Source: Eledone cirrhosa (Eukaryota). Taken from it: DNA of 64,000 nt. The stretch covers positions 37,634,001 to 37,698,000 of the forward strand of contig OZ024741.1 of the NCBI GenBank assembly GCA_964016885.1, written 5' to 3'. Below are positions 3,800-61,217 of this stretch, one piece after another (the stretch's first letter is position 1; every line of letters starts with the position of its first letter). A model generated the notes under the pieces. That model saw only the letters and a list, made by a program, of their open reading frames with translations, was not told the DNA's origin and did not search any database. Both the position numbers and the translations under genes were made by a program.

Positions 3800-5500
3800 T
3801 TGTTACCATATTTCTAATGAAAGATACAGCATATAGTTTTCACTTTTGAAAATAATCAATAATTTGGAGGAATTTAATAAAATAACTTTTTTTTTGTTTA
3901 TCTGGTGTAATTTAACAAATTTTCTTACATAAAATTATAAAGGAAGGCTTTTAGATAAATATAAAACCTTTTAACCCTTTTGTTACCATATTTCTATTGA
4001 AAGACAGCCTATAATTTTCAAATAATTTTTCAAATAACCTTATTTGGTATTTGGGGCATAACCTAACAAAGTACTTACATAAAATTATGATAGCAGGTTT
4101 TTTTTTTAGATAAATATAATCAATTTTGTATTATAGAAATAGGGGCAGTTCTTCGCTGTTTGGTATCAAGAGGTTTTATCACTAAGCAGCATTTGATATT
4201 CCATGTTTATTTATTTTCAAAACTAATTTTTATGTTTATTATTACAAATAGGGTAGTTGATTGGCAGAATCGTTGGAGTATTGTAGAAATGCTTTACAGC
4301 TTATAGTTATGGATTTTTAAATTCTGAGTTCAAATCCTGCTGAAGTCAATATAGCTTTTCCATCCTTCTAGAATCGATAAAATGAAGTACCCTAGTCAAG
4401 TACCCAGTTTCATAGAAACCATTATTACAAGTAGGAGAAAAAGAGAGAGAAAGAGGAAGATATACAAATGGAGAGAGAGATAGGAAGACAAACAAATAGA
4501 AGAAAGAGCAAAACACAGAGAGAGTGAGAGAGAGAGAGAGTAGGCAAGAAAGAATAAGAATAGTTCTTTAATTTCAAGTAGCTGTGAGTATATTACAGTT
4601 TTGGAGGACATCCAGAACTGTTGGTGATGGGTTATTGTAGTTAAACACTTGCAGAATATTTATAGAAACATTTAAATTTACATGTCTATAAATTGTCTCT
4701 TTTTTCAACCTATTTAAATCTACAATTAACTGTACTATCAATGTTTATCTATAACCTTTGTTTAACCCTTTTGATACCAAGCTACCTGACACTCCTTGTT
4801 TTTATGGTACTAAGCTAATCTTAATCATAATTTTATCTAACAATTTTGTGAAAGTATTTCAAACACAGAGTCAATAATGACAACGTTAGTTATTTTATTA
4901 AATCTTTTCAAATTCTTGATTATTTTAAACATTATTTGAAAATCATAAGCAGTGGTTAAACCTCCTATAACCATATTTCTATAAAAATAAACTATACATA
5001 CATTTCTGTAAATTTTGAAAATATAAAAAATTTGGAAGGATTTAGAAAAATATGCAAGCGTGGAACACGGACGCTAAAAATATTTTCATTATTAAGCTGG
5101 GTTTTTGTTAGATATATCAGCAAAAGTGTTTACATAAAAACTATGATGGCAGATTTTAATTTATATATATGCATTTTAAAATGAGATATCTTTATATCAG
5201 AACCAGGAACAGTGTTGGGTGATATAGTATAAAAAAGATTACAGCATTATTTCATTCCTTTCACTTAAATACATATAGTACTTTTTTCTTTCTGTTAAAT
5301 ACATTTTGTTTATTGCAACTATGTGCATGTTTTTAATGAAATATGTGATCATATTTCTAATGAAATACAAAATATTTGAATTAATTAATGAAGAATTTGG
5401 GAGGATTTACTAATATTATTAATAATTTTATTATTTAGATGGTATTTGTAACATACATAACTTAAAGGGAACTTATGTCAAATTATGCTGAAAGATATTA
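3800..5500. mobile_element. Cluster of AT-rich MITEs with TTAA-CCCTTT termini (piggyBac-like non-autonomous), several copies in both orientations
   Basis: TTAACCCTTTTGTTACCATATTTCT...GGTATCAA.AGG.TT at 3972-4177; reverse copy TTAACCCTTTTGATACC at ~4762; further partial copies ~3800, ~4955 and ~5350. Confidence 0.65.
4253..4425 (+). mobile_element. tRNA-derived SINE, family B (Nin/Deu-domain-like)
   Basis: TTGGCAGAATCGTT...TTCTGAGTTCAAATCC..GAAGTCAA..GCTTTTCCATCCTTC..GATAAAATGAAGTACC, the pattern shared by many copies in the window. Confidence 0.7.
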
Positions 5501-5855
5501 ACATACTGTACCGCATGAACCCGTATTGGCAGGACGTCTTGAAAAGTACAAACAACACTATAACTACATTATATTAAATATTAAAGTCTTTACTCTAATA
5601 CTGCAAATTTTCTCAATGATCTTTCCAGTAATAAATATTCTATAAACATTTGAATTAAATTCATTTTTAGATATTTTCTGCTAAACCATTAAAGGAACCC
5701 TTTAAAATTGATGGTTTTCTTTTAAAGCACCAGGGTTAGTTTTTGGCAGTTTGATATCAAAACATTAAAGTAATGTCATATTGTACAATTTCATTCATCA
5801 AAACAATACATTTTGGAGTACATATGGGTAGCAGCATTACTCTTTTAAATTTTAC

Positions 5856-6523
5856 ACCAAACTCTGGGAGGGCTCTGTAGAAACAGTAGACAGCTTCTGC
5901 TACCTAGGTGACTGAATTAGCAGCAGAGGTAGGTGTTCTGAAAGTACAATAACCAGAGTAAGAACGGGATGGAAGAAGTTCAGGGAGCTACTGCCACTGC
6001 TAGCTGCAAAAGGCTTTTCCCACAAAATGAAAGGCAGACTGTATGATGCGTGCATACGAACAGCAATGTTACCTGGTAGTGAGACCTGGGCGTTGTGTGT
6101 AGAAGACTTGTGTAGATTAGAAAGAAATGAAGCTTGCATGATCCAATGTATGTGTAATAGTAATATACGCGAACGGCAAAGCATAAATGAATTGAGGGAG
6201 AGACTGAGCATAAGAGGAATCAAATGCTGTGTGCAGGAGAGGAGATTGCGTTGGTATGGACATGTGATGATGAAGGATGACAGCTGCATAAAAAGGTGCA
6301 GGGCACTGAAAGTCAATGGAAGCCATGGAGTGGGGAGACCCAAGAAGACCTGGGATGAGGGGATAAAAGCGGACATTGCCCAATTGCATCTCTCAAAGGC
6401 AATGACACAGTTCCCGTATGAGCAAGACAAGGTCACCTGACCTAACACTGCCCACAACAAGAAAACCTGTCTAACCCATGCTAGAGTGGAAGAATGGACG
6501 TAAAACGGTGATGATGATGATGA
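5856..6523 (+). mobile_element. RTE LINE 3' fragment with an internal 3'-UTR deletion
   Basis: Near-identical to 10865-11150 and 36331-36760 ([26 protein letters not shown]); jumps directly to the terminal UTR; (GAT)n tail. Confidence 0.9.
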
Positions 6524-8535: not shown

Positions 8536-11154
8536 CGAGTTGGTACCATCAATGTAAGCACAATGAAAGGAAGAGCAGGAGAAATCGTAGAAATGCTAGA
8601 GCGAAAGGAAGTTGATGTATGCTGTGTGCAAGAGACTAGATGGAGAGGAGAGTCTGCCAGAGTCCTGGTAGGAAAAAGTCGGTGCTACAAATTTTTCTGG
8701 GTGGGAAATGACGATGGGATGGGTGGTGTAGGTATACTACTAGCTGACAAGTGGGTAGATAAAGTAATCTCAGTGTACAGGGTAAATGCAAGAATCATTA
8801 AACTCAGACTAGTCCTGAATAAGAGTCCCTAATGCACACTACTGCTCTAACAGACGACAATGACTTCCTAATCATCGCAGGAGATTTTAACGGACACGTA
8901 GGTAAACACTGCGACGGCTTCAATAGAGTACATGGAGGCCATGGGGTTGGCACAAGAAATGAGGAAGGATTCAGACTTCTAGAATTCTGCGAAGCCAATG
9001 ACATGTCGATATGTAACACAAACTTTAAAAAACCCGACAACCACCTGATCACCTATAGATCAGGGGAGCACTCCAGTCAGATAGATTTTATCCTCATCAG
9101 AGGACGTGACAGATGGACGGTCGTAAACACAAAAGCCTTCCCTAGTGAGGAATGTACATCCCAACATAGCTTAGTTGTCAGCGACCACATGGTCAGAACT
9201 AGACGAACCTGGAAACAGAGGCCAATCTGGAAGCTGAAAGCCCCCTCAACCAGTAACAGATTTAAAGATATTTTACTCAACGCCTACGGCAGTAAAGAAG
9301 AACAGATAGAGACATTTAATGTAGAAGAGAACTGGGAGTTCCTAAAAAATAATTTACTAGAGGCGACGGATGAGGCCTGTGGCTGGAGTAAGACCTCAAG
9401 CAGGAGGAGAGTGACTTGGTGGTGGAACAATAAGGTAGATGAAGCAGTTAAGGCCAAGAGACAGGCATGGAAAGAATGGAAGAACGGGGGGAGCAGGGTA
9501 AATTACATAGAGACCAAGAGGGAAGCTAGGCGACAAGTATACTTAGCTAGGAGGGAAGCAGAGGATAGAAAATTCAAGCATGTTTTGCAACGTGAGGACC
9601 AGAAACAGGAGGTATTCAAGATTGCGAGGCAGTGTGTCAGAGATAGTTGTGATGTCATTGGAGAGAAGTGTATCCGGAATGATAAAGGTGAGCTTGCCCT
9701 CACAAGTGCTGAGAAGAAAGATGCATGGAAGAGTCATTATGATAGATTACTAAATGAGGAGAATGCATGGGAAGAAGAGACCCTACCCCAAGTAGACCCT
9801 ATAGAGGGGCCAGCAGTACAAGTCAGTAGCAATGTAGTAAGTAAGGCAATCAAAGATATGAAGATGGGGAAGGCAACCGGTCCATCGGGTATAGCTGCCG
9901 AGATGCTGAAGGCATCTGGGTCTGTAGGTCACACTATAACCACACGTATTGTTAACCAGGTAATACTAGAAGGTGTCATACCAAAAGATTGGTGCAGTAG
10001 CATCATTGTCAACTGCTACAAAGGTAAAGGCGATGCACTAGATAGAGGAAACTATAGAGGTATGAAGTTGATGGACCAGGTCATGAAAGTAACAGAAATA
10101 GTTATAGCACAGTTGATTAGGGACCGGGTGAAAATAGACGAGATGCAATTTGGGTTTGTACCAGGAAGAGGCACCACTGATGCCCTCTTCCTTGTGAGGC
10201 AGTTACAGGAAAAGTACCTAGCTAAAAGTAAGCCACTCTACTTGGCATTTGTCGACCTTGAGAAAGCCTTTGACAGAGTTCCACGTGCTGTAATCTGGTG
10301 GGTTCTTAGAAAACTAGGAGTAGATGAATGGCTTGTGAAAGCGGTACAAGCCATGTATAGGGGAGCAGTCAGCAAAGTTAGGATTAGCAATGAGTATAGT
10401 GAGGAATTTAGCGTACAGGTTGGGGTCCACCAGGGCTCTGTTCTTAGCCCCCTCCTGTTCATCATAGTCCTGCAGGCAATAACGGAGGAGTTTAAGACCG
10501 GATGCCCATGGGAACTCCTGTATGCTGATGACCTCGCACTCATAGCTGAATCTATGGTAGAACTAGAGAATAAATTCCAAACTTGGAAGCAGGGACTAGA
10601 AAGAAAGGGTCTCAAAGTCAACATGACAAAGACTAAGGTCCTTGTAAGTAGATGAGAAAACAGAACCCAGATCCCCTCAGGGAAATGGCCTTGTTCAGTA
10701 TGTAGGAAAGGTGTAGGTAGGAACTCCATTCTCTGCCCCAAATGCAAACAATGGGTACACAAGAGATGTAGCGGGATCTCAGAAAGCTTAATTAAGAATG
10801 TAGGCTTCACATGCAGCAGCTGTGCTGAGACAGCAAGCAGCAGACAGCCACAGGAAACAAGTACCACCAATCTCTGGGAGGGCTCTGTAGAAACAGTAGA
10901 CAGCTTCTGCTACCTAGGTGACCAAATTAGCAGCGGAGGTGGGTGTTCAGAAAGTACAACAACTAGGGTAAGAACGGGATGGAAGAAGTTTAGGGAACTA
11001 CTACCACTGCTAGCTGCAAAAGGCTTCTCCCTCAGAATGAAAGGCAGACTTATGATGCGTGTATCCGAACAGCAATGTTGCATGGTAGTGAGACCTGGGC
11101 GCTGAAGGTGGAAGACTTACGTAGATTAGAGAGAAACGAAGCCTGCATGCTCCG
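8536..11154 (+). pseudogene. RTE ORF (EN-RT) broken by a deletion/frameshift near 8830, a stop at 10653 and a frameshift near 11050
   Basis: ORF track 8452..8832 and 8832..10655 plus recognisable continuation after the stop. Confidence 0.9.
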
Positions 11155-19218: not shown

Positions 19219-19418
19219 NNNNNNNNNNNNNNNNNNNNNNNNNNNNNNNNNNNNNNNNNNNNNNNNNNNNNNNNNNNNNNNNNNNNNNNNNNNNNNNNNN
19301 NNNNNNNNNNNNNNNNNNNNNNNNNNNNNNNNNNNNNNNNNNNNNNNNNNNNNNNNNNNNNNNNNNNNNNNNNNNNNNNNNNNNNNNNNNNNNNNNNNNN
19401 NNNNNNNNNNNNNNNNNN
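19219..19418. other. Assembly gap (200 N)
   Basis: Run of N; the round length suggests a scaffolding placeholder of unknown true size. Confidence 0.99.
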
Positions 19419-19599: not shown

Positions 19600-25640
<6,041 letters not shown>

Positions 25641-25644
25641 AAAA

Positions 25645-27253
25645 TACTGTCAAGCGGGCCTTAGCAACTCCACTGAAGATGCTCTTCAGAAGCTCCTTGG
25701 CTAGCGCGTGTACTACCAGGGAGCTGAAAAGAAGGAACAATATGCCCTATCCATAAAGGAGGTAGTAGAGCGGAGGCCCAAGAACTATAGGCCAGTACTT
25801 CCTGATGTCGCATATCCGTAAGGTCATGGAGCGCAGTCGCTCAGAAAGAAGCTAATCACTTTCCTCAAAGAAAATGCACCGCCTGACTAGCACGCCACCA
25901 TGGCTTCCGCCCAGGAAGAAGCTTCTTCTACACACGCTGCTACACTCACTACGACTGGGTACTGAGACAACTACTAGACAGCTCCCATGTAGATGTGATA
26001 TATCTTGACTTTGCGAAGGCCTTTGACAAGGTCGACCACGGAATGATATGTCACAAACTACACGGACTCGGCATAACCTGGAAAAGTAGGTGAGTGGCTG
26101 CATGGCTTCCTAAGGGACAGAAGCCAGGCAGTCGCAGCAAATGGGGCCCTCTCAAGGGAAACACCGATAACAAGTGGGGTGCCTCAGAGGACAGTCCTGG
26201 GACCACTACTGTTTTTGGTGGCTCTCTCGGACATGCCCTCAGTGGTGCATGCAACAACATCCCTCACTAGTTATGCTGATGACACTAAGATAGCACAGGC
26301 AATCAAAAACCCGGCTGACGCTGCCCTCTTACAGCAGATCTGGATGCCATATACAGATGGGCGGAAGAAAACAACATGCAGTTTAATGCTGGCAAATTCC
26401 AAGCCCTACAATACAAACCTGCAAACACAAACACAAATATAGCGCAACACAGCTACACAGGACCAGGAGGGACCGATATCCCCATGTCAAAATCGATACG
26501 AGACCTGGAATAGACATGAGCGATGATGCATCTTTTTCTTCACACATCATGAAGGTGGCGACAGCATGTAGACGATTCGCTGGCTGGATCTTGAGGACTT
26601 TTCCTTACAAGAGATCCAGACACCATGTTGACACTGTGGAGGACTTCTGTCCTAAGCCGCCTGGACTACTGCTCCCAGCTGTGGTCACCCCATAGTGTCA
26701 AACTAACCACGGAGCTTGAGGCAATCCAGCGAAGCTACACCAAGAGGATTGCCAAGATGAGGGAGACAAGCTACTGGGAGAGGCTGAAGGAACTGAACCT
26801 CTACTCCTTGGAGCGAAGACGGGGAGAGATACGCAGTGATCTACATGTGGAAAATCCTGGAGGGACTAGCACCAAACTTTGGCATTGGGAGCTGGACCAA
26901 CCGTCGAACAGGACGTCACTGTGTGGTGCCAAAGGTCCCGTCTTCCACATCTAGAATAAGGAGCAGGTATTGCAATAGCCTGGGATTCAAGGACCCTCAA
27001 CTCTTCAACAGGCTGCCGAGGCATCTGAGAGACTTGCATGACGGGAGGTGGATGTCTTTAAGAAACATCTCGACACCTTGTTATCCAGGATCCCGGATGA
27101 GCCCACAGCAAGACACGAGGGAAACCTAAGGGCAGCAGCAACAAACTCCCTCCTACACCAGTGGCCAACCTATACAGGCTGGAGATAAAATGTGTAGCAA
27201 CAAGGGCGGTGCCCAGCATGGCCTCAGCCGGATGGCTGAAACAGGTAAAAGAG
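25645..27253 (+). mobile_element. 5'-truncated CR1/L2-group LINE; RT pseudogene with many frameshifts
   Basis: PIHKGG..KNYRPV, HGFR, IYLDFAKAFDKVDH, SGVPQ.TVLGPLLF, YADDTK, RLDYCSQLWSP, YWERLKELNLYSLERRR; 3' end CCCAGCATGGCC..GGCTGAAACAGGTAAAAGAG. Confidence 0.9.
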
Positions 27254-27436
27254 TATATATGTATATATATGTATATGTAATATGTATATATATGTAATAT
27301 ATATGTATATGTATATATATATGTATATATATGTATATGTATATATATGTATATGTATATATATGTATATATATGTATATATATATATGTATATATATGT
27401 ATATATATATATGTATATATATATGTATATATGTAT

Positions 27437-27469
<33 letters not shown>

Positions 27470-27496
27470 GTATATATGTATATATATTTATATATG

Positions 27497-27532
<36 letters not shown>

Positions 27533-27680
27533 TATGTATATGTATATATGTATATATATATGTATATATGTATATATATATATGTATATATATATATGTA
27601 TATATGTATATATGTATATGTATATATGTATATGTATATATGTATATATATATATGTATATATATATATATGTATATATG

Positions 27681-27745
<65 letters not shown>

Positions 27746-27806
27746 GTATATATATATATGTATATATGTATATATATATATATGTATATATATATATGTA
27801 TATATG

Positions 27807-27840
<34 letters not shown>

Positions 27841-28129
27841 ATGTATATGTATATATATTATGTATATGTATATATTTATATATATTTATATGTATATATA
27901 TGTATATATGTATATATGTATATATATATATGTATATATATGTATATATGTATATATGTATATATATATATATGTATATATGTATATATATGTATATATG
28001 TATATATATGTATATATGTATATATATGTATATATGTATATTTATGTATATATGTATATTATATGTATATATATATATGTATATATATATATATGTATAT
28101 ATATAAGTATATATGTATATATATATATG

Positions 28130-28160
<31 letters not shown>

Positions 28161-28203
28161 GTATATATATATATGTATATATGTATATATATATGTATAT
28201 ATG

Positions 28204-28234
<31 letters not shown>

Positions 28235-28291
28235 GTATATATATATGTGTATATATATATATGTATATATATATATATGTATATATATATA
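27254..28291. repeat. (TA)n/(TATG)n field
   Basis: Read directly from sequence. Confidence 0.97.
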
Positions 28292-28507
28292 TTTCGTTTC
28301 TGAATTTGTTTAGCAAGATTCTTTATCTGAAATCGTGTGTTGAAACCGATATTGTTATACTTTGGGAGGGTCATGTTGCCAATAAGAAACACACGCACCA
28401 GTTGCTTTCACTTCAATTTAATTTAATATATATTTATAAATTTACAAATTTATAAATTTCTGGTTGGTTGGTTGGTTCCACAACCAGATAGTTGTTTATA
28501 TATATAT

Positions 28508-28552
28508 AGTCATAGTTCTTTCGTCACACACTCTGTGACCTCTTCAGTGACT
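28508..28552 (-). ncRNA. Type I minimal hammerhead ribozyme motif (mirror copy)
   Basis: Exact reverse complement of 28666-28710. Confidence 0.75.
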
Positions 28553-28665
28553 GGGGATTTCTTTCTTCGTTTCTGTGCCTTTCCTTTCTTCTATCCTACG
28601 CCATTTTCAGAAAATGGCGTAGGATAGAAGAAAGGAAAGGCACAGAAACGAAGAAAGAAATCCCC

Positions 28666-28710
28666 AGTCACTGAAGAGGTCACAGAGTGTGTGACGAAAG
28701 AACTATGACT
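28666..28710 (+). ncRNA. Type I minimal hammerhead ribozyme motif
   Basis: AGUCA-CUGAAGA-G-GUCACA(GAGUG)UGUGAC-GAAA-G(AA)C-UA-UGACU: stem I AGUCA/UGACU, 6-bp stem II, minimal stem III, CUA triplet. Confidence 0.75.
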
Positions 28711-28869
28711 ATATATATATAAACAACTATCTGGTTGTGGAACCAACCAACCAACCAGAAATTTATAAATTTGTAAATTTATAAATATATATTAAATTAA
28801 ATTGAAGTGAAAGCAACTGGTGCGTGTGTTTCTTATTGGCAACATGACCCTCCCAAAGTATAACAATAT

Positions 28870-36330
<7,461 letters not shown>

Positions 36331-37120
36331 TTTAGGGAACTACAACCACGGCTACCTGCAAAAGGCTTCTCTTTCAGAATGAAATGCAGACTGTATGATG
36401 CGTGTATCCGAACAGCGATGTTGCATGGTAGTGAGACCTGGGCGCTGAAGGTGGAAGACTTACGTAGATTAGAGAGAAACGAAGCCTGCATGCTCCGATG
36501 GATGTGTAACAGTAATATATGTGAACGACAAAGCATAAATGAATTGTGAGAGAGACTGAGCATAAGAGGAATCAGATGCTGTGTGCAGGAGAGGCGGCTG
36601 CGCTGGTATGGACATGTGATGCGTATGAAGGATGACAGCTGCATAAAAAGGTGCAGAGCACTAGAAGTTGATGGAAACCGCGGAGTGGGGAGATCCAAGA
36701 TGACCTGGGATGAGGTGATAAAAGCCGACCTTACCCAATTACACCTCTCAAAGGCAATGACACACGGCCGTGACTTCTGGCGTCATGCAGTAATACAGAG
36801 TACCCGACCTCCCATGGGTACAAGCTGAAGCATATAGACAATATGCCCCCACACCCCCCACCGCAAGGTGGTCGTGGAGGTGCCACGGCAAAAAATCACC
36901 CAGCCCACACTGTAAAGTGGACGTGTAGGTGCCACGAAAAAGCACCCAGCACTCACTGTAAATGAGGTTGGTGTTAGGAAGGGCATCCAGCTGTAGATAT
37001 CAAGCCAAAGTCAGTTCCTGTATGAGCAAGGCATGGTCAGCCGACCAGACACTGCACACAACAGGACAACCCGTCTAACCCATGCTAGCGTGGAAGAACG
37101 GACGTAAAACGATGATGATG
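36331..37120 (+). mobile_element. 5'-truncated RTE (C-terminus, full 3' UTR, (GAT)n)
   Basis: [38 protein letters not shown]; same family as 8165-11154. Confidence 0.93.
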
Positions 37121-37439
37121 ATATATATGTATATATGTATATGTATATATATGTATATATGTATATGTATATATGTATATGTATATATGTATATGTATAT
37201 ATATGTATATGTATATATATGTATATATATATATATGTATATATGTATATATATATATATGTATATATGTATATATATATATATGTATATATGTATATGT
37301 ATATATATGTATATGTATATATATGTGTATATGTATATGTATATATATGTATATATGTATATGTATATGTATATATATGTATATGTATATATGTATATAT
37401 GTATATATATATGTATATATATATATGTATGTATATATG

Positions 37440-37472
<33 letters not shown>

Positions 37473-37475
37473 GTG

Positions 37476-37522
<47 letters not shown>

Positions 37523-37613
37523 GTATATATATATGTATATATATATATATGTATATGTATATATGTATATGTATATGTATATATATATATATATGTATAT
37601 GTATATATATATG

Positions 37614-37644
<31 letters not shown>

Positions 37645-37646
37645 GT
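37121..37646. repeat. (TA)n/(TATG)n tract between two tail-to-tail RTE copies
   Basis: Read directly from sequence. Confidence 0.95.
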
Positions 37647-38138
37647 ATCATCATCATCATCAGGTTTAGCGTCCGTGTTCCACGCTTGCATGGGTTTGGA
37701 CGGGTGTTTTCCCACTTGAGGCAAGAGTGGTTGTCTTGCTTGCATAGGACTGTCTGGCAGGTTTTCTACAGTTGGATGCCCTTCCTAACACCAACCACAT
37801 TTACAGTGTGGGGCTGGGAGGTTTTTACCGTGTTGCCTACTGACTGTAGTAGGTTTTTACTTTGTATTTAGGTAAGGCGGGTCTTCTCTATTACTGAGTA
37901 CCGCCATAGGTCTCGGTCCAGTGACATTGTCTTGGAGAGGTGTAAGCGTGTGAGGTCGGAATTTATCAGCTCGTCCTATGTTTTTCTGGGTCTGCCTACT
38001 CCGTGGCTACCGTCTATCTTTATTGCCCTGCACTTTGTTATACAGCTGTCGTCTTTCATGCGCATCACGTGACCGTACCAACGTAGCCTTCTCTCGAGTA
38101 AACAACATCTGATCCCTCTTATTTCTAATTTTTTCCTT
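37647..38138 (-). mobile_element. RTE 3' fragment (subfamily 2)
   Basis: Minus strand encodes [24 protein letters not shown], followed by the UTR and (GAT)n. Confidence 0.88.
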
Positions 38139-38139
38139 A

Positions 38140-39810
<1,671 letters not shown>

Positions 39811-51530: not shown

Positions 51531-52599
51531 TTTGCGTCAAAGCATGGCTAATAAATGTAACTAGGAAAAGTTCTCCAATAGGAGGGGATTGTACTTTAGG
51601 CTAATTCCAGGGCAAATCCCACACAAAACCTGTGGATTACTATCACCTCAAGGGCATTGAAAGTGCCCTCTCCCTGTCTCTTTCTTCCTACTACTAATAA
51701 TAATTTCAATATCCTCTTGCCAATAATAATAAAATGTTTAACAACAAACATTGCTAGATTTAAATCCATTGTGTTACAATGCTTGCTGTTTAAACAAGCA
51801 ATGAAATAGCTCCACTTTAATACCTAGAGCTTTTTGTATTGGGTTTTCATATTGTTAAAATATGTCTATGCTTTTGTACATGCTCTTGTCTATATATATA
51901 TATATACACACACATCTATATTATCTATATATACATACACATACACACAAATGTATGTATGTGTGTATATATATTAACTATATATACATACACACACAAA
52001 TGTATGTGTGTGTGTGTGTACACATATATATTACCTATATATACATACACACTCTCACACACAAATGTATGTGTATATATTTATTTATATATATATATAA
52101 TTACAAATCTATTGTTACTCGGCATAAAACATTTATTGTAGTCTAAGAAATGTAATAATATACTTTTGGAAAATGTTGGTAGTTATAGTCAAGCTTCCTC
52201 ATTGTATATATGCTTTACTTCTTAACCTTTCTCTTCATAATCACATGAAAATTTAACTAGTTATGTCACTGTTAATAGTTGTTTAGCTCTCTCTTATAGT
52301 CTTCTGTCAGGATGATTTATAGATTTCTAAATGTCCTCAAATTACATAAACAATTGCTAGTTGTTTGCTCCTGTGTCTAAATATTTAATGGTTAAATTTC
52401 TATGAATTATTTGATGTTGTAATATATAATAATGCTAAACCAATTTTAATATTCTTTGCCAATTAAATAGGTGGCCTATTGTATAATGATATAGACCAAA
52501 TTCTCATTGGGTTACATTGTATACTTCATAGAAGAATGGTAAAGTATTTGCTCAGCAGAATTAGGAGTTTTAATGGATTTAAGTATTCCTATTAGATGC

Positions 52600-52690
52600 C
52601 AAATTGGCAGAGTTCTTAGAGTCTCAGATACAATACTTTGTGGCTCTCTGAGTTCAAACCCTGCTGAGGTCAACTTTGCCTTTCATCTTT
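52600..52690 (+). mobile_element. SINE, family B, cut off at the left IR of the satellite
   Basis: TTGGCAGAG..TCTGAGTTCAAACCCTGCTGAGGTCAACTTTGCCTTTCATCTTT. Confidence 0.75.
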
Positions 52691-55600
52691 TCCAAAAATT
52701 AAATACATTGAATGATATTGTTGTCGTTATTGACAGCAGTGGTCCACTAGTATACAGTAAGGGGGCCATTGCTGTCAATAATAACATTGACAGCAGTGGT
52801 CCACTAGTATGCAGTAAGGGGACCACTGCTGTCAATAATAACATTGACAGCACTGGTCCACTAGTATACAGTAAAGGGACCACTGCTGTCAATAATAACA
52901 TTGACAGCAGTGGTCCACTAGTATAGGTACAGGGACCACTGCTGTCAATAATAACATTGACAGCAGTGGTCCACTAGTATACAGTAAGGGGACCACTGCT
53001 GTCAATAATAACATTGACAGCAGTGGTCCACTAGTATACAGTAAGGGGGCCACTGCTGTCAATAATAACATTGACAGCAGTGGTCGACTAGTATAGGTAC
53101 AGGGACCACTGCTGTCAATAATAACATTGACAGCACTGGTCCACTAGTATACAGTAAGGGGACCACTGCTGTCAATAATAACATTGACAGCAGTGGTCCA
53201 CTAGTATACAGTAAAGGGACCACTGCTGTCAATAATAACATTGACAGCACTGGTACACTAGTATACAGTAAAGGGACCACTGCTGTCAATAATAACATTG
53301 ACAGCAGTGGTCTACTAGTATACAGTAAGGGGACCACTGCTGTCAATAATAACATTGACAGCAGTGGTCTACTAGTATACAGTAAGGGGGCCACTGCTGT
53401 CAATAATAACATTGACAGCAGTGGTCCACTAGTATACAGTAAGGGGGCCACTGCTGTCAATAATAACATTGACAGCACTGGTCCACTAGTATACAGTAAG
53501 GGGGCCACTGCTGTCAATAATAACATTGACAGCAGTGGTCCACTAGTATACAGTAAGGGGACCACTGCTGTCAATAATAACATTGACAGCAGTGGTCCAC
53601 TAGTATACAGTAAGGGGACCACTGCTGTCAATAATAACATTGACAGCAGTGGTCCACTAGTATACAGTAAGGGGACCACTGCTGTCAATAATAACATTGA
53701 CAGCAGTGGTCCACTAGTATACAGTAAGGGGGCCACTGCTGTCAATAATAACATTGACCGCAGTGGTCCACTAGTATACAGTAAGGGGGCCATTGCTGTC
53801 AATAATAACATTGACAGCACTAGTATACAGTAAGGGGACCACTGCTGTCAATAATAACATTGACAGCAGTGGTCCACTAGTATACAGTAAAGGGACCACT
53901 GCTGTCAATAATAACATTGACAGCAGTGGTCCACTAGTATACAGTAAGGGGACCACTGCTGTCAATAATAACATTGACAGCACTGGTCCACTAGTATACA
54001 GTAAGGGGACCACTGCTGTCAATAATAACATTGACAGCAGTGGTCCACTAGTATAGGTACAGGGACCACTGCTGTCAATAATAACATTGACAGCACTGGT
54101 CCACTAGTATACAGTAAGGGGACCACTGCTGTCAATAATAACATTGACAGCAGTGGTCCACTAGTATACAGTAAAGGGACCACTGCTGTCAATAATAACA
54201 TTAACAGCACTGGTCCACTAGTATACAGTAAAGGGACCACTGCTGTCAATAATAACATTGACAGCAGTGGTCCACTAGTATACAGTAAGGGGACCACTGC
54301 TGTCAATAATAACATTGACAGCAGTGGTCCACTAGTATACAGTAAAGGGACCACTGCTGTCAATAATAACATTGACAGCACTGGTCCACTAGTATACAGT
54401 AAAGGGACCACTGCTGTCAATAATAACATTGACAGCAGTGGTCCACTAGTATACAGTAAGGGGACCACTGCTGTCAATAATAACATTGACAGCAGTGGTC
54501 CACTAGTATACAGTAAGGCGACCACTGCTGTCAATAATAACATTGACAGCAGTGGTCCACTAGTATACAGTAAGGGGACCACTGCTGTCAATAATAACAT
54601 TGACAGCAGTGATCCACTAGTATACAGTAAGGGGACCACTGATGTCAATAATAACATTGACAGCAGTGGTCCACTAGTATACAGTAAGGGGACCACTGCT
54701 GTCAATAATAACATTGACAGCAGTGGTCCACTAGTATACAGTAAAGGGACCACTGCTGTCAATAATAACATTGACAGCAGTGGTCCACTAGTATACAGTA
54801 AGGGGACCACTGATGTCAATAATAACATTGACAGCAGTGGTCCACTAGTATACAGTAAGGGGACCACTGCTGTCAATAATAACATTGACAGCAGTGGTCC
54901 ACTAGTATACAGTAAAGGGACCACTGCTGTCAATAATAACATTGACAGCAGTGGTCCACTAGTATAGGTACAGGGACCACTGCTGTCAATAATAACATTG
55001 ACAGCAGTGGTCCACTAGTATACAGTAAGGGGACCACTGCTGTCAATAATAACATTGACAGCAGTGGTCCACTAGTATACAGTAAGGGGACCACTGCTGT
55101 CAATAATAGCATTGACAGCACTGGTCCACTAGTATACAGTAAGGGGACCACTGCTGTCAATAATAGCATTGACAGCAGTGGTCCACTAGTATACAGTAAG
55201 GCGACCACTGCTGTCAATAATAGCATTGACAGCAGTGGTCCACTAGTATACAGTAAAGGGACCACTGCTGTCAATAATAACATTGACAGCACTGGTCCAC
55301 TAGTATACAGTAAGGCGACCACTGCTGTCAATAATAACATTGACAGCACTGGTCCACTAGTATACAGTAAGGGGACCACTGCTGTCAATAATAACATTGA
55401 CAGCAGTGGTCCACTAGTATACAGTAAGGCGACCACTGCTGTCAATAATAACATTGACAGCACTGGTCCACTAGTATACAGTAAGGGGACCACTGCTGTC
55501 AATAATAACATTGACAGCAGTGGTCCACTAGTATACAGTAAGGCGACCACTGCTGTCAATAATATTGACAGCACTGGTCCACTAGTATACAGTAAGGCGA

Positions 55601-58600
55601 CCACTGCTGTCAATAATAACATTGACAGCAGTGGTCCACTAGTATACAGTAAGGCGACCACTGCTGTCAATAATAACATTGACAGCACTGGTCCACTAGT
55701 ATACAGTAAGGCGACCACTGCTGTCAATAATAACATTGACAGCAGTGGTCCACTAGTATACAGTAAGGGGACCACTGCTGTCAATAATAACATTGACAGC
55801 AGTGGTCCACTAGTATACAGTAAGGGGACCACTGATGTCAATAATAACATTGACAGCAGTGGTCCACTAGTATACAGTAAAGGGACCACTGCTGTCAATA
55901 ATAACATTGACAGCAGTGGTCCACTAGTATAGGTACAGGGACCACTGCTGTCAATAATAACATTGACAGCAGTGGTCCACTAGTATACAGTAAGGGGACC
56001 ACTGCTGTCAATAATAACATTGACAGCAGTGGTCCACTAGTATACAGTAAGGGGACCACTGCTGTCAATAATAGCATTGACAGCACTGGTCCACTAGTAT
56101 ACAGTAAGGGGACCACTGCTGTCAATAATAACATTGACAGCACTGGTCCACTAGTATACAGTAAGGCGACCACTGCTGTCAATAATAACATTGACAGCAC
56201 TGGTCCACTAGTATACAGTAAGGGGACCACTGCTGTCAATAATAACATTGACAGCAGTGGTCCACTAGTATACAGTAAGGCGACCACTGCTGTCAATAAT
56301 AACATTGACAGCACTGGTCCACTAGTATACAGTAAGGGGACCACTGCTGTCAATAATAACATTGACAGCAGTGGTCCACTAGTATACAGTAAGGCGACCA
56401 CTGCTGTCAATAATATTGACAGCACTGGTCCACTAGTATACAGTAAGGCGACCACTGCTGTCAATAATAACATTGACAGCAGTGGTCCACTAGTATACAG
56501 TAAGGCGACCACTGCTGTCAATAATAACATTGACAGCACTGGTCCACTAGTATACAGTAAGGCGACCACTGCTGTCAATAATAACATTGACAGCAGTGGT
56601 CCACTAGTATACAGTAAGGGGACCACTGCTGTCAATAATAACATTGACAGCAGTGGTCCACTAGTATACAGTAAGGGGACCACTGCTGTCAATAATAACA
56701 TTGACAGCAGTGGTCCACTAGTATACAGTAAGGGGACCACTGCTGTCAATAATAACATTGACAGCAGTGGTCCACTAGTATACAGTAAGGGGACCACTGC
56801 TGTCAATAATAGCATTGACAGCACTGGTCCACTAGTATACAGTAAGGGGACCACTGCTGTCAATAATAGCATTGACAGCAGTGGTCCACTAGTATACAGT
56901 AAGGCGACCACTGCTGTCAATAATAGCATTGACAGCAGTGGTCCACTAGTATACAGTAAAGGGACCACTGCTGTCAATAATAACATTGACAGCACTGGTC
57001 CACTAGTATACAGTAAGGCGACCACTGCTGTCAATAATAACATTGACAGCACTGGTCCACTAGTATACAGTAAGGGGACCACTGCTGTCAATAATAACAT
57101 TGACAGCAGTGGTCCACTAGTATACAGTAAGGCGACCACTGCTGTCAATAATAACATTGACAGCACTGGTCCACTAGTATACAGTAAGGGGACCACTGCT
57201 GTCAATAATAACATTGACAGCAGTGGTCCACTAGTATACAGTAAGGCGACCACTGCTGTCAATAATATTGACAGCACTGGTCCACTAGTATACAGTAAGG
57301 CGACCACTGCTGTCAATAATAACATTGACAGCAGTGGTCCACTAGTATACAGTAAGGCGACCACTGCTGTCAATAATAACATTGACAGCACTGGTCCACT
57401 AGTATACAGTAAGGCGACCACTGCTGTCAATAATAACATTGACAGCACTGGTCCACTAGTATACAGTAAGGCGACCACTGCTGTCAATAATAACATTGAC
57501 AGCAGTGGTCCACTAGTATACAGTAAGGGGACCACTGCTGTCAATAATAACATTGACAGCAGTGGTCCACTAGTATACAGTAAGGCGACCACTGCTGTCA
57601 ATAATATTGACAGCACTGGTCCACTAGTATACAGTAAGGCGACCACTGCTGTCAATAATAACATTGACAGCAGTGGTCCACTAGTATACAGTAAGGCGAC
57701 CACTGCTGTCAATAATATTGACAGCACTGGTCCACTAGTATACAGTAAGGCGACCACTGCTGTCAATAATAACATTGACAGCAGTGGTCCACTAGTATAC
57801 AGTAAGGCGACCACTGCTGTCAATAATAACATTGACAGCACTGGTCCACTAGTATACAGTAAGGCGACCACTGCTGTCAATAATAACATTGACAGCACTG
57901 GTCCACTAGTATACAGTAAGGCGACCACTGCTGTCAATAATAACATTGACAGCAGTGGTCCACTAGTATACAGTAAGGGGACCACTGCTGTCAATAATAA
58001 CATTGACAGCAGTGGTCCACTAGTATACAGTAAGGGGGCCACTGCTGTCAATAATAACATTGACAGCACTGGTCCACTAGTATACAGTAAGGGGACCACT
58101 GCTGTCAATAATAACATTGACAGCACTGGTCCACTAGTATACAGTAAGGGGACCACTGCTGTCAATAATAACATTGACAGCAGTGGTCCACTAGTATACA
58201 GTAAGGGGACCACTGCTGTCAATAATAACATTGACAGCAGTGGTCCACTAGTATACAGTAAGGGGACCACTGCTGTCAATAATAACATTGACAGCACTGG
58301 TCCACTAGTATACAGTAAGGGGGCCACTGCTGTCAATAATAACATTGACAGCAGTGGTCCACTAGTATACAGTAAGGGGACCACTGCTGTCAATAATAAC
58401 ATTGACAGCACTGGTCCACTAGTATACAGTAAAGGGACCACTGCTGTCAATAATAACATTGACAGCAGTGGTCCACTAGTATACAGTAAAGGGACCACTG
58501 CTGTCAATAATAACATTGACAGCACTGGTCCACTAGTATACAGTAAAGGGACCACTGCTGTCAATAATAACATTGACAGCACTGGTCCACTAGTATACAG

Positions 58601-59457
58601 TAAAGGGACCACTGCTGTCAATAATAACATTGACAGCACTGGTCCACTAGTATACAGTAAAGGGACCACTGCTGTCAATAATAACATTGACAGCACTGGT
58701 CCACTAGTATACAGTAAGGGGACCACTGCTGTCAATAATAACATTGACAGCAGTGGTCCACTAGTATACAGTAAAGGGACCACTGCTGTCAATAATAACA
58801 TTGACAGCAGTGGTCCACTAGTATACAGTAAAGGGACCACTGCTGTCAATAATAACATTGACAGCAGTGGTCCACTAGTATACAGTAAGGGGACCACTGC
58901 TGTCAATAATAACATTGACAGCAGTGGTCCACTAGTATACAGTAAGGGGACCACTGCTGTCAATAATAACATTGACAGCACTGGTCCACTAGTATACAGT
59001 AAGGGGACCACTGCTGTCAATAATAACATTGACAGCAGTGGTCCACTAGTATACAGTAAGGGGACCACTGCTGTCAATAATAACATTGACAGCACTGGTA
59101 CACTAGTATACAGTAAAGGGACCACTGCTGTCAATAATAACATTGACAGCAGTGGTCCACTAGTATACAGTAAGGGGACCACTGCTGTCAATAATAACAT
59201 TGACAGCACTGGTCCACTAGTATACAGTAAGGGGACCACTGCTGTCAATAATAACATTGACAGCACTGGTCCACTAGTATACAGTAAGGGGACCACTGCT
59301 GTCAATAATAACATTGACAGCAGTGGTCCACTAGTATACAGTAAGGGGACCACTGCTGTCAATAATAACATTGACAGCAGTGGTCCACTAGTATAGGTAC
59401 AGGGACCACTGCTGTCAATAATAACAACAATATTGTTCAATGTATTTAATTTTTGGA
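52691..59457. repeat. 57-bp hairpin minisatellite (~117 copies, span/57) enclosed by 55-bp terminal inverted repeats
   Basis: Unit GGACCACTGCTGTCAAT-AATAAC-ATTGACAGCAGTGGTCC-ACTAGTATACAGTAAGG (17-bp stem, 6-nt loop, 17-nt linker); 52691-52745 and 59403-59457 are reverse complements at 51/55 positions. Confidence 0.97.
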
Positions 59458-59476
59458 GTTCAGTTTGTATGAGTGG

Positions 59477-59745
59477 AGGCATGTGGCCTATTGGTAAAGG
59501 TGTTGGACTTAATGATAATAATGTCATGGGTTTGATTCCTGGGCTGGGTTGTGTGTTGTGTTCTTGAGCAAATCACTTCATTTCACATTACTCCAGTATA
59601 CTCAGCTGAAAATAAGTACCAGCAATAGCTGTGGGTTAAGCCTGCAATGGACTGGCATCATTTCCAGGGTGGAGAGAGTCTTGTACTCTGTCACTTCATG
59701 TTACAAAACCAGGATAAGCACCGGCTTGAAGAGCCTCTTAGCTCG
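59477..59745 (+). mobile_element. tRNA-derived SINE, family A
   Basis: GAGGCATGTGGCCTATTGGTAAAG..GGGTTTGATTCC..TTCTTGAGCAAATCACTTCATTTCAC. Confidence 0.75.
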
Positions 59746-60002
59746 AGACAGACAGACAGTATTTGCATACCTTATATTACTGGATATATAATCAATCATA
59801 CAAACTGGGAAATGTGTGTATTGATGAATTAGTGGTTTGCATAAGACATATGGATTGAATGTATGAGTAACTTTGGATAAATAGCTATTTACAGGGACAA
59901 CTGTAGGGAAGCAACTTCTTATTGTAGCAACATGTCTGGAATAGGAAATATATTGTGGGTAAATTTTGAAGTATTACAGACGTGTGTGTATATATATATA
60001 TA

Positions 60003-60253
60003 TGAAGCATATAGACAGTATTCCCCACCTCCTCCCACTGTAAAGTGGTCGTGTAGGTGCCATGATAAAAAGCACCCAGTACCCACTGTAAATGAGGTTG
60101 GTGTTAGGAAAACCATCTAGTTGTAGAAATCAAGCCAAAATCAGTTCTATATGAGCAAGACATGGTCACCTGACCTGGCATTACCCACAACAGGACAACT
60201 TGTCTAACTCATGCTAGCATGGAAAAATGGACGTAAAGCAGTGAGGATGATGA
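60003..60253 (+). mobile_element. RTE 3' UTR
   Basis: TGAAGCATATAGACA..ACTGTAAATGAGGTTGGTGTTAGGAA..ATGCTAGCATGGAA..GATGATGA. Confidence 0.85.
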
Positions 60254-60422
60254 ATATAGAAACACATGTCACGTATAATTTTGGTTGACACCCACAAAAT
60301 ACATTTTCTGCTGCTCAAGCTGAAATGGCAGTGACCCTATTCTAAACTGTTTATACACTATAATTTATCTGCAAATACATGGAAAATCACTGTATATTAA
60401 ATTATTGCTTTTGTCTTCAGGC

Positions 60423-61217
60423 TTAACCATTCCATTGCTGTATTTCTAATGAAAGACTCTGCCTATGACTTTCAGTAAAGAATTTTGAGGAATTTACCAT
60501 CTCATTTTTAAGTCTGTGTTCATAACATAACTCAGTAAAAGTTCTGATTTAAAATTATGATGGAAGTTATTAATAAAAACTTTAAAACAAACAGTTTAGT
60601 ATCCTAAAACCAAGGGTAGTTTCAGGTGTTTTGATATCAAAAGGATTAAACCATTTTTTCTATTTGGTTTTCTAGAGATTTCATCTTAGAGTGGTTTCAA
60701 AGCTCAAGTCATAGAAATACTGATACTAAAGAGCTTCAGTAATTCTATGATTAGCTCTTATGATGACATTTCCATTTTGATGGCCTTTTTATGGCTCCCT
60801 AGTTTTTATTCTAAAGTGGCAATTGGTAGAATTGTTAGACAAATTGTGGTATTTGTTCTGGCTCTTTGCATTCTGTGTTCAAATCCCACTGAGATGAAGT
60901 TTGCCTTCTGCCCTTAATGAGTCAATGAAATACAAGCCTCATGCTGATGTCGAATTTTCTCTTTCTATACTGTATCTGTTAACCCTTGTGATGCCAACCC
61001 ACCCAAAACTGCCTCTAAATGTTGAAACAAAACCCTCCCATTACAAAGTGTTCCTATTTAAATTAAAACCTTCCAACATCATTTTATATAAGAACATTTT
61101 GTTATGTTATAAATACAATTCTAATAATGGAATAATTATTCATTTTAATAAATCCCGAAAGATTTTCATTAACACAAATACTGTGTTTTATTAGAATTAT
61201 GGTAATGAATGGGTTAA
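60423..61217. mobile_element. TTAA/CCCTTT MITEs (60423-60650 +; 60979-61217 -) flanking a degenerate family B SINE (~60815-60930)
   Basis: TTAACCATTCC..GATATCAAAAGGATTAA; TTAACCCTTGTGATGCC..GGTAATGAATGGGTTAA. Confidence 0.6.

Follow-up and report, generated by a model that had tools for sequence, protein, structure and literature searches.

A 118-unit tandem array between two inverted Helitron 3' ends, probably grown from the tip of a local fold-back

Non-autonomous Helitrons of the HLE1 type are defined in PMC11417382 and PMC12001565 (in the available text of both). Tandem arrays derived from Helitrons have been reported for Heli1Xen1/Heli2Xen in Xenopus, Cg170/HindIII in oyster, 154TR in Drosophila and satellites of C. 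elegans (available text of PMC12001565, PMC12628747 and PMC4595182), and a rolling-circle model outlined in PMC12628747 favours the amplification of 5' parts. Other satellites lie in MITEs or foldback elements: Tetris/TIR-220 (PMC4079207), Xstir and miDNA4 (both via PMC12628747) and DTC84 (PMC3879986), again as far as these accounts go. At a smaller scale, the available part of PMC13334657 describes the precise loss of small inverted structures through slippage over hairpins.

The first duplication of a satellite is usually invisible, as its source, breakpoints and ancestral state are lost. In the window analysed here (a single stretch of 64,000 nucleotides), the source element, both breakpoints and the capping arms are readable, and a relative carries an unexpanded orthologous site. 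The satellite has 118 units, occupies a single locus and lies between two inverted Helitron 3' ends; it probably arose from a local fold-back palindrome, slippage having duplicated the tip and ordinary recombination having amplified it in this lineage alone. The locus is likely a before-and-after record of a satellite born from a local fold-back accident, not within a mobile element. Feature coordinates are given in Table 1.

Table 1. Features of the array and its surroundings, numbered from the first base of the window.
Feature	Position	Strand	Remarks
Truncated fragment of an abundant dispersed repeat	52640..52692	+	Ends at the left junction; other copies continue into different sequence
Left arm	52691..52750	+	Last 60 bp of the Helitron family; CTAG intact (52747-52750), then T; putative inverted duplicate of the resident tail
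Helitron terminal stem-loop, decayed	52719..52738	+	8-bp stem, 4-nt loop; imperfect direct repeat (14/20) of 59410-59429
TATTG, shared by both unit breakpoints (5-bp microhomology)	52728..52732, also 59431-59435	+ (first site)	Candidate seed of the first duplication
Tandem array	52729..59426	+	118 units of 25 sequence types at one locus; blocks duplicated 8, 15 and 30 units apart
First apex, 17 bp	52746..52762	+	CTAG end, TA-rich target bases and decayed mirror half
Right arm	59403..59471	-	3' end of the resident Helitron, which has lost its CTAG
Unrelated repeat inserted in the resident Helitron	59472..59775	+	Gap in the family alignment; left junction common to the related organism of run X1
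Resident Helitron body and 5' end	59776..60288	-	59776-59846 (89%); 113-bp internal deletion; 59840-60000 (69% with gaps)
Second insertion in the resident Helitron	~60001-60249		
Resident Helitron 5' end	60250-60288	-	77% over 39, E 1e-4; flank base G, not A

TRF reported one array of period 57 (118.0 copies, 96% matches), in agreement with the preliminary description of this DNA, and an in-register split gave 107 units of 57 bp, five of 56 bp, five of 54 bp and one of 49 bp, with a mean pairwise difference of 3.3%. The make-up of the 57-bp unit was also as first described: the inner 17 bp of the left arm, a 17-bp apex and the inner 23 bp of the right arm. Of the 57 bases, 45 come from the Helitron 3' end, 22 of them read forward, through CTAG, and 23 in reverse, and each unit carries a stem and then CTAG. 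A unit is predicted to fold into a 17-bp stem (-20.2 kcal/mol, DNA parameters); for natural stretches of the array both serial hairpins and a longer rod were predicted, two of the foldings that had been anticipated. The apex has the same orientation in all units, which fits direct duplication, and a 16-bp variant of it occurs in six units, the last one among them. The longest repeated block of units spans 13 units (at most 6 in 200 shuffles). A 21-mer across the unit junction occurs 107 times in the genome and all 107 occurrences fall inside the window, which places the array at a single locus.

The recurring blocks of 13 identical unit types are what a misassembly might produce, and the exact length of 118 units is as in the assembly, the units themselves being present in short-read contigs as well. 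It is nevertheless very improbable that the array length or the capping arms are an assembly artefact: the 25 unit types are patterned, and both junctions were recovered independently in run X1. In run X2, unit contigs reached depths of 585 and 327, compared to 5.4 for the flank contig (approximately 170-fold, a ratio of depths and not a copy number). Neither array junction was spanned among the X2 pieces listed, and runs X2-X4 come from one sample, possibly that of the assembly itself. RAD-seq of three other individuals (X5, X6 and X7) gave no contigs on the units; X5 gave none on the single-copy flank either, and X6 and X7 gave none anywhere.

The array is a head-to-tail tandem repeat with a unit traceable to transposon sequence. 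A classical satellite is large and usually multi-locus or heterochromatic, and this array occupies one locus of 6.7 kb; its size is that of a large minisatellite or of an incipient satellite. As 57 is divisible by 3, long open frames (1161 and 1225 codons) run through the two strands. A coding role was rejected: the frame is shifted by units of 56 and 49 bp, and the source sequence is non-coding. Rfam gave no match to a microRNA or other family at the gathering threshold over 52400-53000 (0/34; the best reached 42 bits against 110, a generic hairpin likeness). Pfam indicated no neighbouring gene among the other open frames of 36400-64000 (0/68 at cut-off), a search that short exons would escape. 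The array is most likely without function, a passive product of unstable self-complementary DNA.

The flanks of the array had been considered unique, but both arms belong to a dispersed repeat family. They are the last 55-60 bp (stem-loop and CTAG) of a non-autonomous Helitron family of 0.4-0.5 kb, which starts with TC after an A, ends with CTAG before a T and has neither target-site duplications (TSDs) nor terminal inverted repeats (TIRs). Among 26 copies chosen by an exact 21-mer beginning one base inside the 5' end, 22 have the terminal TC, 25 an A before the start and 21 both, and sharing between copies ends 2-3 bases upstream. Sixteen of these copies had no tail scoring at least 60 within 1.4 kb; where the tail is clear, it ends in CTAG in 7 of 10 copies and in CTRR in 8 of 10, followed by T in 9 of 10. 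CTAG also ends 18 of 23 copies picked with the arm, and sharing stops directly after it. The terminal 8-bp stem is paired in 21-29 of 30 copies at each position, and its variation looks like CpG decay and not like compensatory change. No TSD was found in the flanks of 10 full-length copies, and the two ends of the family majority sequence have no inverted match to each other. A Helentron or HLE2 assignment was rejected on account of the absence of (sub)terminal inverted repeats and the insertion between A and T, not between two Ts. The DNA search with arm and unit was dominated by the array itself (274 matches, 124 of them outside those listed; 40 of 107 candidates scored).

Over 55 bp, each arm (52691-52745 and 59403-59457) is the reverse complement of the other apart from four mismatches in two dinucleotides (TG/CA and CG/TA), exactly as first claimed, and the match between them ends abruptly at both outer ends. 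Both dinucleotides had been attributed to CpG decay. This fits the first pair; at the second, the family state is CA (C in 22 and A in 21 of 23 copies) and one change per arm appears the simpler reading. The left arm is 90% identical to the family majority sequence over 62 bp, and no family sequence was found upstream of 52691. Thousands of contigs align at the truncated repeat on its left, with loose ends departing at 52686-52692, and the last two matching bases of this repeat (TC, 52691-52692) are common to the left arm, forming a 2-bp microhomology. The right arm is 82-83% identical to the majority over 71 columns, its family match extends 14 bp past the inverted repeat, and it runs on for approximately 830 bp as a full-length, interrupted minus-strand Helitron copy to 60288. 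The first insertion interrupting this copy may be SINE-like, by its resemblance. No further family copy was found in the 20 kb to the right of the window.

Inverted arms would also result if two sibling Helitron copies had entered a single TA-rich target with their tails facing each other, the left one later losing all but 60 bp and the array arising at their junction. Double insertion has reportedly been discussed as a substrate for satellites (McGurk and Barbash 2018, cited in PMC12628747). The family inserts before T, mostly at TA-rich sites, and CTAG, TA-rich bases and a decayed mirror are one possible reading of the apex. However, four minority states are common to both arms (positions 20, 25, 31 and 49; present in 5, 3, 4 and 2 of the 23 arm-picked copies), and the arms differ from each other at 4 of 55 positions, compared to 7 and 6 differences between the left and right arms, respectively, and the nearest of those 23 copies, which were chosen by likeness to the left arm. 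As family copies are 86-92% like the majority sequence, an independent pair would usually exceed 4/55 differences and lack the four common minority states, although independent copies homogenised by gene conversion could be as alike. Moreover, no trace of a left-hand body was found, and a younger Helitron family with 764 exact ends showed no tail-to-tail pair within 34 bp. We leave double insertion only a small chance.

The proposal that an inverted repeat came first and the array grew from its tip was borne out by a related organism (run X1), in which one 230-bp contig (depth 16) carries both junctions and both arms and no repeat unit. This is also the unexpanded copy in a relative whose presence had been suggested as a check; it is a single contig from a single run. 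The contig aligns to 52665-52718 (1 difference) and 59403-59479 (4 differences and a 2-base insertion), and its loose end enters the same insertion that interrupts the resident Helitron in the window. X1 depth was zero on the apex and the units, while its flanks diverge from the window by 6.7% (36/534). As the X1 organism has both junctions and arms without units, the fold-back predates the split of the two lineages, and the array is likely younger than the split. The span from arm to arm is approximately 113 bp in X1, not the 126 bp proposed for the precursor, and neither the apex of the window nor its inner left arm has a match in the centre of the X1 contig (27-30 bases). The X1 form is therefore no clean ancestor: its tip changed as well, or it may be a collapsed array.

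Under the latter reading the array predates the split and was lost in the X1 organism by deletion through the hairpin. A centre unlike both the inner left arm and the apex is what an imprecise deletion could leave, and hairpin slippage is reported to remove small inverted structures precisely (PMC13334657, in its available part). Against this, the units differ by 3.3%, compared to 6.7% in the flanks, although homogenisation can make an array appear younger than its real age. The X1 right arm also reaches three bases further into the Helitron end than the right arm of the window (matching 52746-52748) and looks less derived. We consider this loss improbable.

The locus was initially presented as a MITE-like or foldback element of approximately 126 bp whose centre had expanded, a reading now largely refuted and barely conceivable. 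Inverted arms do cap the array, and a short unexpanded form does exist in a relative, but that form is found at the same locus, not elsewhere, and the right arm belongs to a longer element, the resident Helitron. The flanks outside 52691 and 59457 have no target-site duplication in common, as had been noticed from the start. Dispersed two-armed copies, which the preliminary description had named as possible support, did not appear: no inverted partner accompanies the tail at any of the 36 family loci that match it. None of the attributes of MITEs and foldbacks (terminal inverted repeats as element ends, TSDs, dispersed two-armed copies) was found for the arm-array-arm unit; inverted repeats at both ends of an array do not by themselves make it a MITE. 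A genome-wide arm-gap-arm pattern matched 11 sites, compared to 9 control sites, and none of the 11 carries the family tail; another fold-back pattern gave two unrelated matches (L056 and L057), compared to 11 in the control, and none was found in the younger Helitron family. These exact patterns, which detect only a minority of diverged copies, gave no indication of frequent fold-back at the Helitron ends of this genome.

We propose the following course for the local fold-back. It begins with an old non-autonomous Helitron copy on the minus strand, present in the window at 59403-60288. A template switch during repair or replication may have made an inverted copy of its last 60 bp; this copy would have been joined to the truncated repeat via the two shared bases, with loss of the original flank. 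The inverted pair with both junctions, seen in the X1 organism without any unit, predates the split. Because the Helitron tail holds its own stem-loop, the inverted tail would create direct repeats and a 5-bp microhomology either side of the tip, and slippage back from the right arm onto the left one would duplicate the tip. Contraction of an AAT/AAC run could yield units of 57 and 54 bp; if this triplet contraction is left out, the unit junction shows only 1 bp of microhomology. Finally, blocks of 8-30 units were duplicated, possibly by unequal exchange or break-induced copying.

Every Helitron tail holds a small stem-loop. The nested symmetry of this locus might, tentatively, represent a general route of satellite birth, in which folding back a sequence that bears a stem-loop puts direct repeats astride the tip of the palindrome. 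It is equally tentative that the tip escapes deletion by amplifying, every new unit rebuilding the hairpin-plus-CTAG terminus. If this route is true, the locus is a dated before-and-after example, with a short palindrome in one organism and 118 units in its relative.

Aberrant rolling-circle replication by the Helitron transposase could also have made the units, each of which ends in a hairpin and CTAG before T like a Helitron terminus. Stem and CTAG do follow each other in every unit, the genome holds intact Rep genes (150 of 150 scored PF14214 matches above the cut-off; 3704 candidates), two family copies (L046 and L052) carry direct duplications of their own 3' end, and Helitron tandem arrays are known (available text of PMC12001565 and PMC12628747). 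However, the units lack the 5' TC terminus, the start point of rolling-circle replication, and are 3'-end parts, whereas the model in the available text of PMC12628747 amplifies 5' parts preferentially. The family is old, and no autonomous partner was found among 18 Rep-coding 10-kb loci examined from the 3704 candidates: none matches either family end, and four terminate in another hairpin-CTAG. The array shows no dispersal, and its variants lie in nested blocks and not in one uniform burst. Amplification of the array by rolling circle is unlikely, with a very small chance in our estimate.

With the source element, breakpoints, arms and unexpanded site all readable, expansion driven by a palindrome tip becomes testable. 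The locus is one, probably functionless, and satellites that derive from transposons or bear palindromes are already well known; as a single case of transposon-derived satellite birth, its value lies in the unexpanded ortholog. An array grown from a folded-back Helitron end was not described in the mostly open-access literature searched by title and abstract opening.

Compared to HLE1 elements, as characterised in the available text, the parent family likewise starts with TC, ends in a stem-loop and CTAG, has A/T flanks and lacks TSDs, TIRs and coding capacity. The array itself is no element: it consists of 3'-end parts only and has not moved. The Helitron-derived arrays of Xenopus, oyster, Drosophila and C. 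elegans are, like this one, tandem repeats from Helitron sequence, but in the accounts available they consist of copies joined head to tail or of internal arrays that the element carries and disperses, whereas the unit described here is a chimera of two inverted 3' ends, absent from the element and confined to one locus. Tetris/TIR-220, Xstir, miDNA4 and DTC84 also place a tandem array between inverted repeats, and the Xstir model likewise begins with a stem-loop between two nearby elements (PMC12628747, available part). As far as they are described in these sources, however, they are dispersed families with true TIRs and with repeats that already existed within the element; the inverted repeat of this locus is a local duplication made once, and its symmetry axis lies within the unit. 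The small inverted triplications of PMC13334657 have, in its available part, spacers of approximately 30 bp and junctions of approximately 6 bp from replication errors, sizes comparable to those of the arms, centre and microhomology found here. Those structures are direct/inverted/direct and are reported there as unstable and eliminated, whereas the present locus has one inverted duplicate with its flank lost, was kept across a species split, and had its tip amplified approximately 100-fold.

The array consists of 118.0 copies with a period of 57 (TRF), and in-register splitting gave 118 units that fall into 25 types; 107 units measure 57 bp, five 56, five 54 and one 49. The capping arms pair as a 55-bp inverted repeat with four mismatches, and matching stops abruptly at either side. 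Extent, unit number and caps agree with the preliminary description, as does its foldability: a 17-bp stem was predicted for the 57-bp unit, and natural stretches of the array were predicted to fold into serial hairpins or longer rods. Every apex points in the same direction. The longest recurring run of unit types was 13 (offset of 30 units), with further runs at offsets of 15 and 8, compared to a maximum of 6 in 200 shuffles. The window is part of contig C2 of a 3.0-Gb genome. The array is single-locus: all 107 occurrences of the unit junction 21-mer in the genome (exact search) lie inside the window, and a second motif has at most 12 of its 121 occurrences elsewhere (109 in the window). Unit position 11 is C, the majority base of the Helitron family described below, in 43 of the 107 full-length units vs. 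G in both arms, with no accompanying change at the paired base in the stem's right half. This C may be a reversion, or it may survive from the ancestral state, the arms having been corrected later. Open-frame, Pfam and Rfam results did not support a coding or RNA-gene role for the array.

An exact 21-mer of the arm occurs at three other genome sites, and a DNA search returned many more at 81-87% among the 150 of 274 matches listed. All 23 copies picked by the arm (the three from the pattern, plus 20 taken from the top non-array matches listed) match it. In nearly all of them the common sequence reaches 100-400 bp upstream and halts right past the arm end (the copy at locus L045 is interrupted). 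CTAG terminates 18 of the 23 and T comes next in 21, the query itself having contained that end. As a control for this bias, 26 copies were chosen by an exact motif near the opposite (5') end: 21 start with TC preceded by A. A clear tail lies within 1.4 kb in ten (lengths 389-703 bp), and 16 have none at the score cut. Among those ten, seven end in CTAG and nine have T after the end. The stem-loop (8-bp stem, 4-base loop) ends eight bases before CTAG, and 21-29 of 30 copies, depending on the position, keep its pairing. Target-site duplications were absent in 10 full-length copies, and the family has no TIR. Because of this start, the stem-loop and CTAG end followed by T, and the lack of target-site duplication and TIR, the family is classified by sequence as a non-autonomous HLE1 Helitron, whose defining features in the available text of PMC11417382 and PMC12001565 are those seen here. 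Eighteen copies are 86-92% like the family majority sequence, indicating that the family is old.

Rep genes are numerous in the genome, and none of the 18 Rep-coding loci fetched shares the family ends (four of them terminate in another kind of hairpin-CTAG); amplification of the array by a transposase-driven rolling circle is very unlikely. A GC-rich hairpin and a CTAG end followed by T characterise a younger, autonomous Helitron family seen at loci L109, L116, L117 and L118 (3' ends at ~5150-6000, element orientation); as an exact 17-mer, its end occurs 764 times in the genome. Direct partial 3'-end duplications were seen in two copies of the parent family (L046:1341-1567 and L052:1072-1569), one of which restarts from internal sequence directly past CTAG and T. 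Near-identical top-scoring PF14214 Rep domains repeat, mostly on one strand, on four contigs (C20:3.54-5.19 Mb, C27:13.7-15.5 Mb, C19:35-40 Mb and C16:0.5-0.8 Mb; L095-L102), with a spacing of roughly 80-210 kb on C20, and are possibly giant tandem units of ~100 kb or more with one Rep gene each.

Positions of the array, its arms and the resident Helitron copy in the window
Feature	Position	Strand	Basis
Array	52729-59426		TRF
Left arm	52691-52745		arm alignment
Right arm	59403-59457		arm alignment
Resident Helitron, tail part	59403-59471	minus	family alignment; CTAG lost
Insertion in resident Helitron	to 59775		family alignment
Resident Helitron, body	59776-59846, 113-bp deletion, 59840-60000	minus	family alignment
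Second insertion in resident Helitron	between 60000 and 60250		family alignment
Resident Helitron, 5' end	60250-60288	minus	weak match, correct place

Judged from the family alignment, the right arm is not an element end: a whole family copy continues on the minus strand. The MITE-like or fold-back element of the preliminary description was not sustained; a mobile MITE accommodates the inverted caps, but fails on target-site duplication, on ends and on dispersal, and is highly improbable. Taken as a whole, the preliminary reading was half right, and the feature is real. The left arm is just the last 60 bp of the family, with CTAG intact, and starts within a different, very abundant repeat, truncated there with two bases in common. 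The two arms have four minority states in common and differ at 4 of 55 positions; the smallest distance from any of the 23 copies picked by the arm is seven differences to the left arm and six to the right. The simplest reading is that the tail of the resident copy was duplicated locally, in inverted orientation, to give the left arm. Two Helitrons inserted tail to tail would also give inverted ends, an unlikely event; no tail-to-tail pair within 34 bp was found for the younger family among its exact ends. Both mismatched pairs between the arms had been ascribed to CpG decay, which fits the first; the family sequence is CA at the second, giving one change per arm.

Elsewhere in the window, at 60405-60480 (plus strand), an AG-terminated pyrimidine tract precedes a short open frame and a stop; this may be a last exon, in which case the array would be intronic. 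Positions 19665-36331 and 37121-39810 comprise a degenerate (TA)n array of 16.7 kb, strongly GC-skewed and beside a 200-N gap (19219-19418), along with two shorter related arrays. A 610-codon open frame lies at 8823-10653 (plus strand), and we take its start to resemble the endonuclease part of a LINE.

The unexpanded copy anticipated by the preliminary description was not found elsewhere in this genome: none of 36 loci with a tail match, among 60 examined, has an inverted partner (one self-match to the inner stem-loop was set aside, and L050 and L080 are one copy). Two genome-wide arm-gap-arm patterns, exact and hence missing most diverged copies, matched no family member, and their counts were at control level. 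At L085, L087, L088 and L090 (~position 1500 each), a TA- or CA-rich microsatellite forms the centre of a short, near-perfect palindrome, and local fold-back duplications may be common in the genome independent of Helitrons. L057:1500-1650 holds an unrelated short tandem repeat (~35 bp).

Such a copy does exist at the same locus in a related organism, the source of X1, one of seven sequencing runs listed. On the left flank, an X1 contig shows 36 differences over 534 positions (6.7%). A second contig (230 bp, depth 16) crosses the left junction at 52665-52718 with one difference, has 27-30 unaligned letters, and resumes at 59403-59479 (four differences, 2-base insertion), running on into the insertion that interrupts the resident Helitron. 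Its central letters match neither the inner left arm nor the apex of the window. The short form measures ~113 bp arm to arm, on one contig of one run, and contigs drop rare variants. X1 depth was 0 over apex and units in both comparisons. Since this contig includes both junctions and depth on the units is 0, the fold-back and both junctions are older than the split; the X1 run lacks the array. Collapse of a former array in that organism, compatible with the rest of the account favoured here, is improbable. In runs X2 and X3 the units reach ~170x flank depth, of the order of magnitude expected, and no listed piece crosses a junction; these runs are one sample, possibly the assembly's own, and so not independent. 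Nothing from the three RAD-seq runs (X5, X6 and X7) matched the units or the single-copy flank, so these runs carry no weight here. An assembly artefact is scarcely credible.

The source element, its orientation, the junctions, the single locus, the relative's short form, the same-direction apexes and the block structure are observed; the array probably originated by local fold-back of the Helitron tail, a slip across its tip and later amplification. The fold-back would have arisen from a template switch in repair or replication, and its sizes resemble those of the small inverted duplications in the available part of PMC13334657. The first duplication would be a slip across the palindrome tip. 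The tail stem-loop, once inverted, forms a direct repeat (52719-52738 vs. 59410-59429, 14/20 identical today), and TATTG is present at both breakpoints (52728-52732 and 59431-59435). A slip at TATTG would give a 63-bp unit, and losing two or three triplets of the AAT/AAC run would give 57 and 54; no 63-bp unit occurs among the array's units. Subsequent growth could have proceeded through unequal exchange or break-induced copying. The mean difference between units (3.3%) is half the X1 flank divergence, a value consistent with post-split growth, though homogenisation could mimic this. A general role for nested symmetry at Helitron tails in seeding satellites is less likely than not, and fold-back counts in this genome gave it no support.

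A transposon feeding a satellite will not surprise a specialist. Transposon-derived satellites, Helitrons and MITEs with internal arrays, and palindromic monomers are all known from the available text of PMC12628747, PMC12001565, PMC4595182, PMC13404089 and PMC4079207, and the Xstir, miDNA4, rolling-circle and double-insertion models are described in that of the review PMC12628747. No array grown from a folded-back Helitron end appeared in the titles and abstract openings of the searched literature, a scope excluding subscription papers and supplements. With a readable origin and a short orthologous state, the first steps of satellite birth become testable. The array looks Tetris- or miDNA4-type, yet does not behave as a MITE in target-site duplication, ends or dispersal. 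Unlike the transposon-derived arrays covered by these texts, its unit was never present in the element, being a chimera built over the symmetry axis of a one-off inverted duplication, and the array has not moved, with a short form surviving in a relative.
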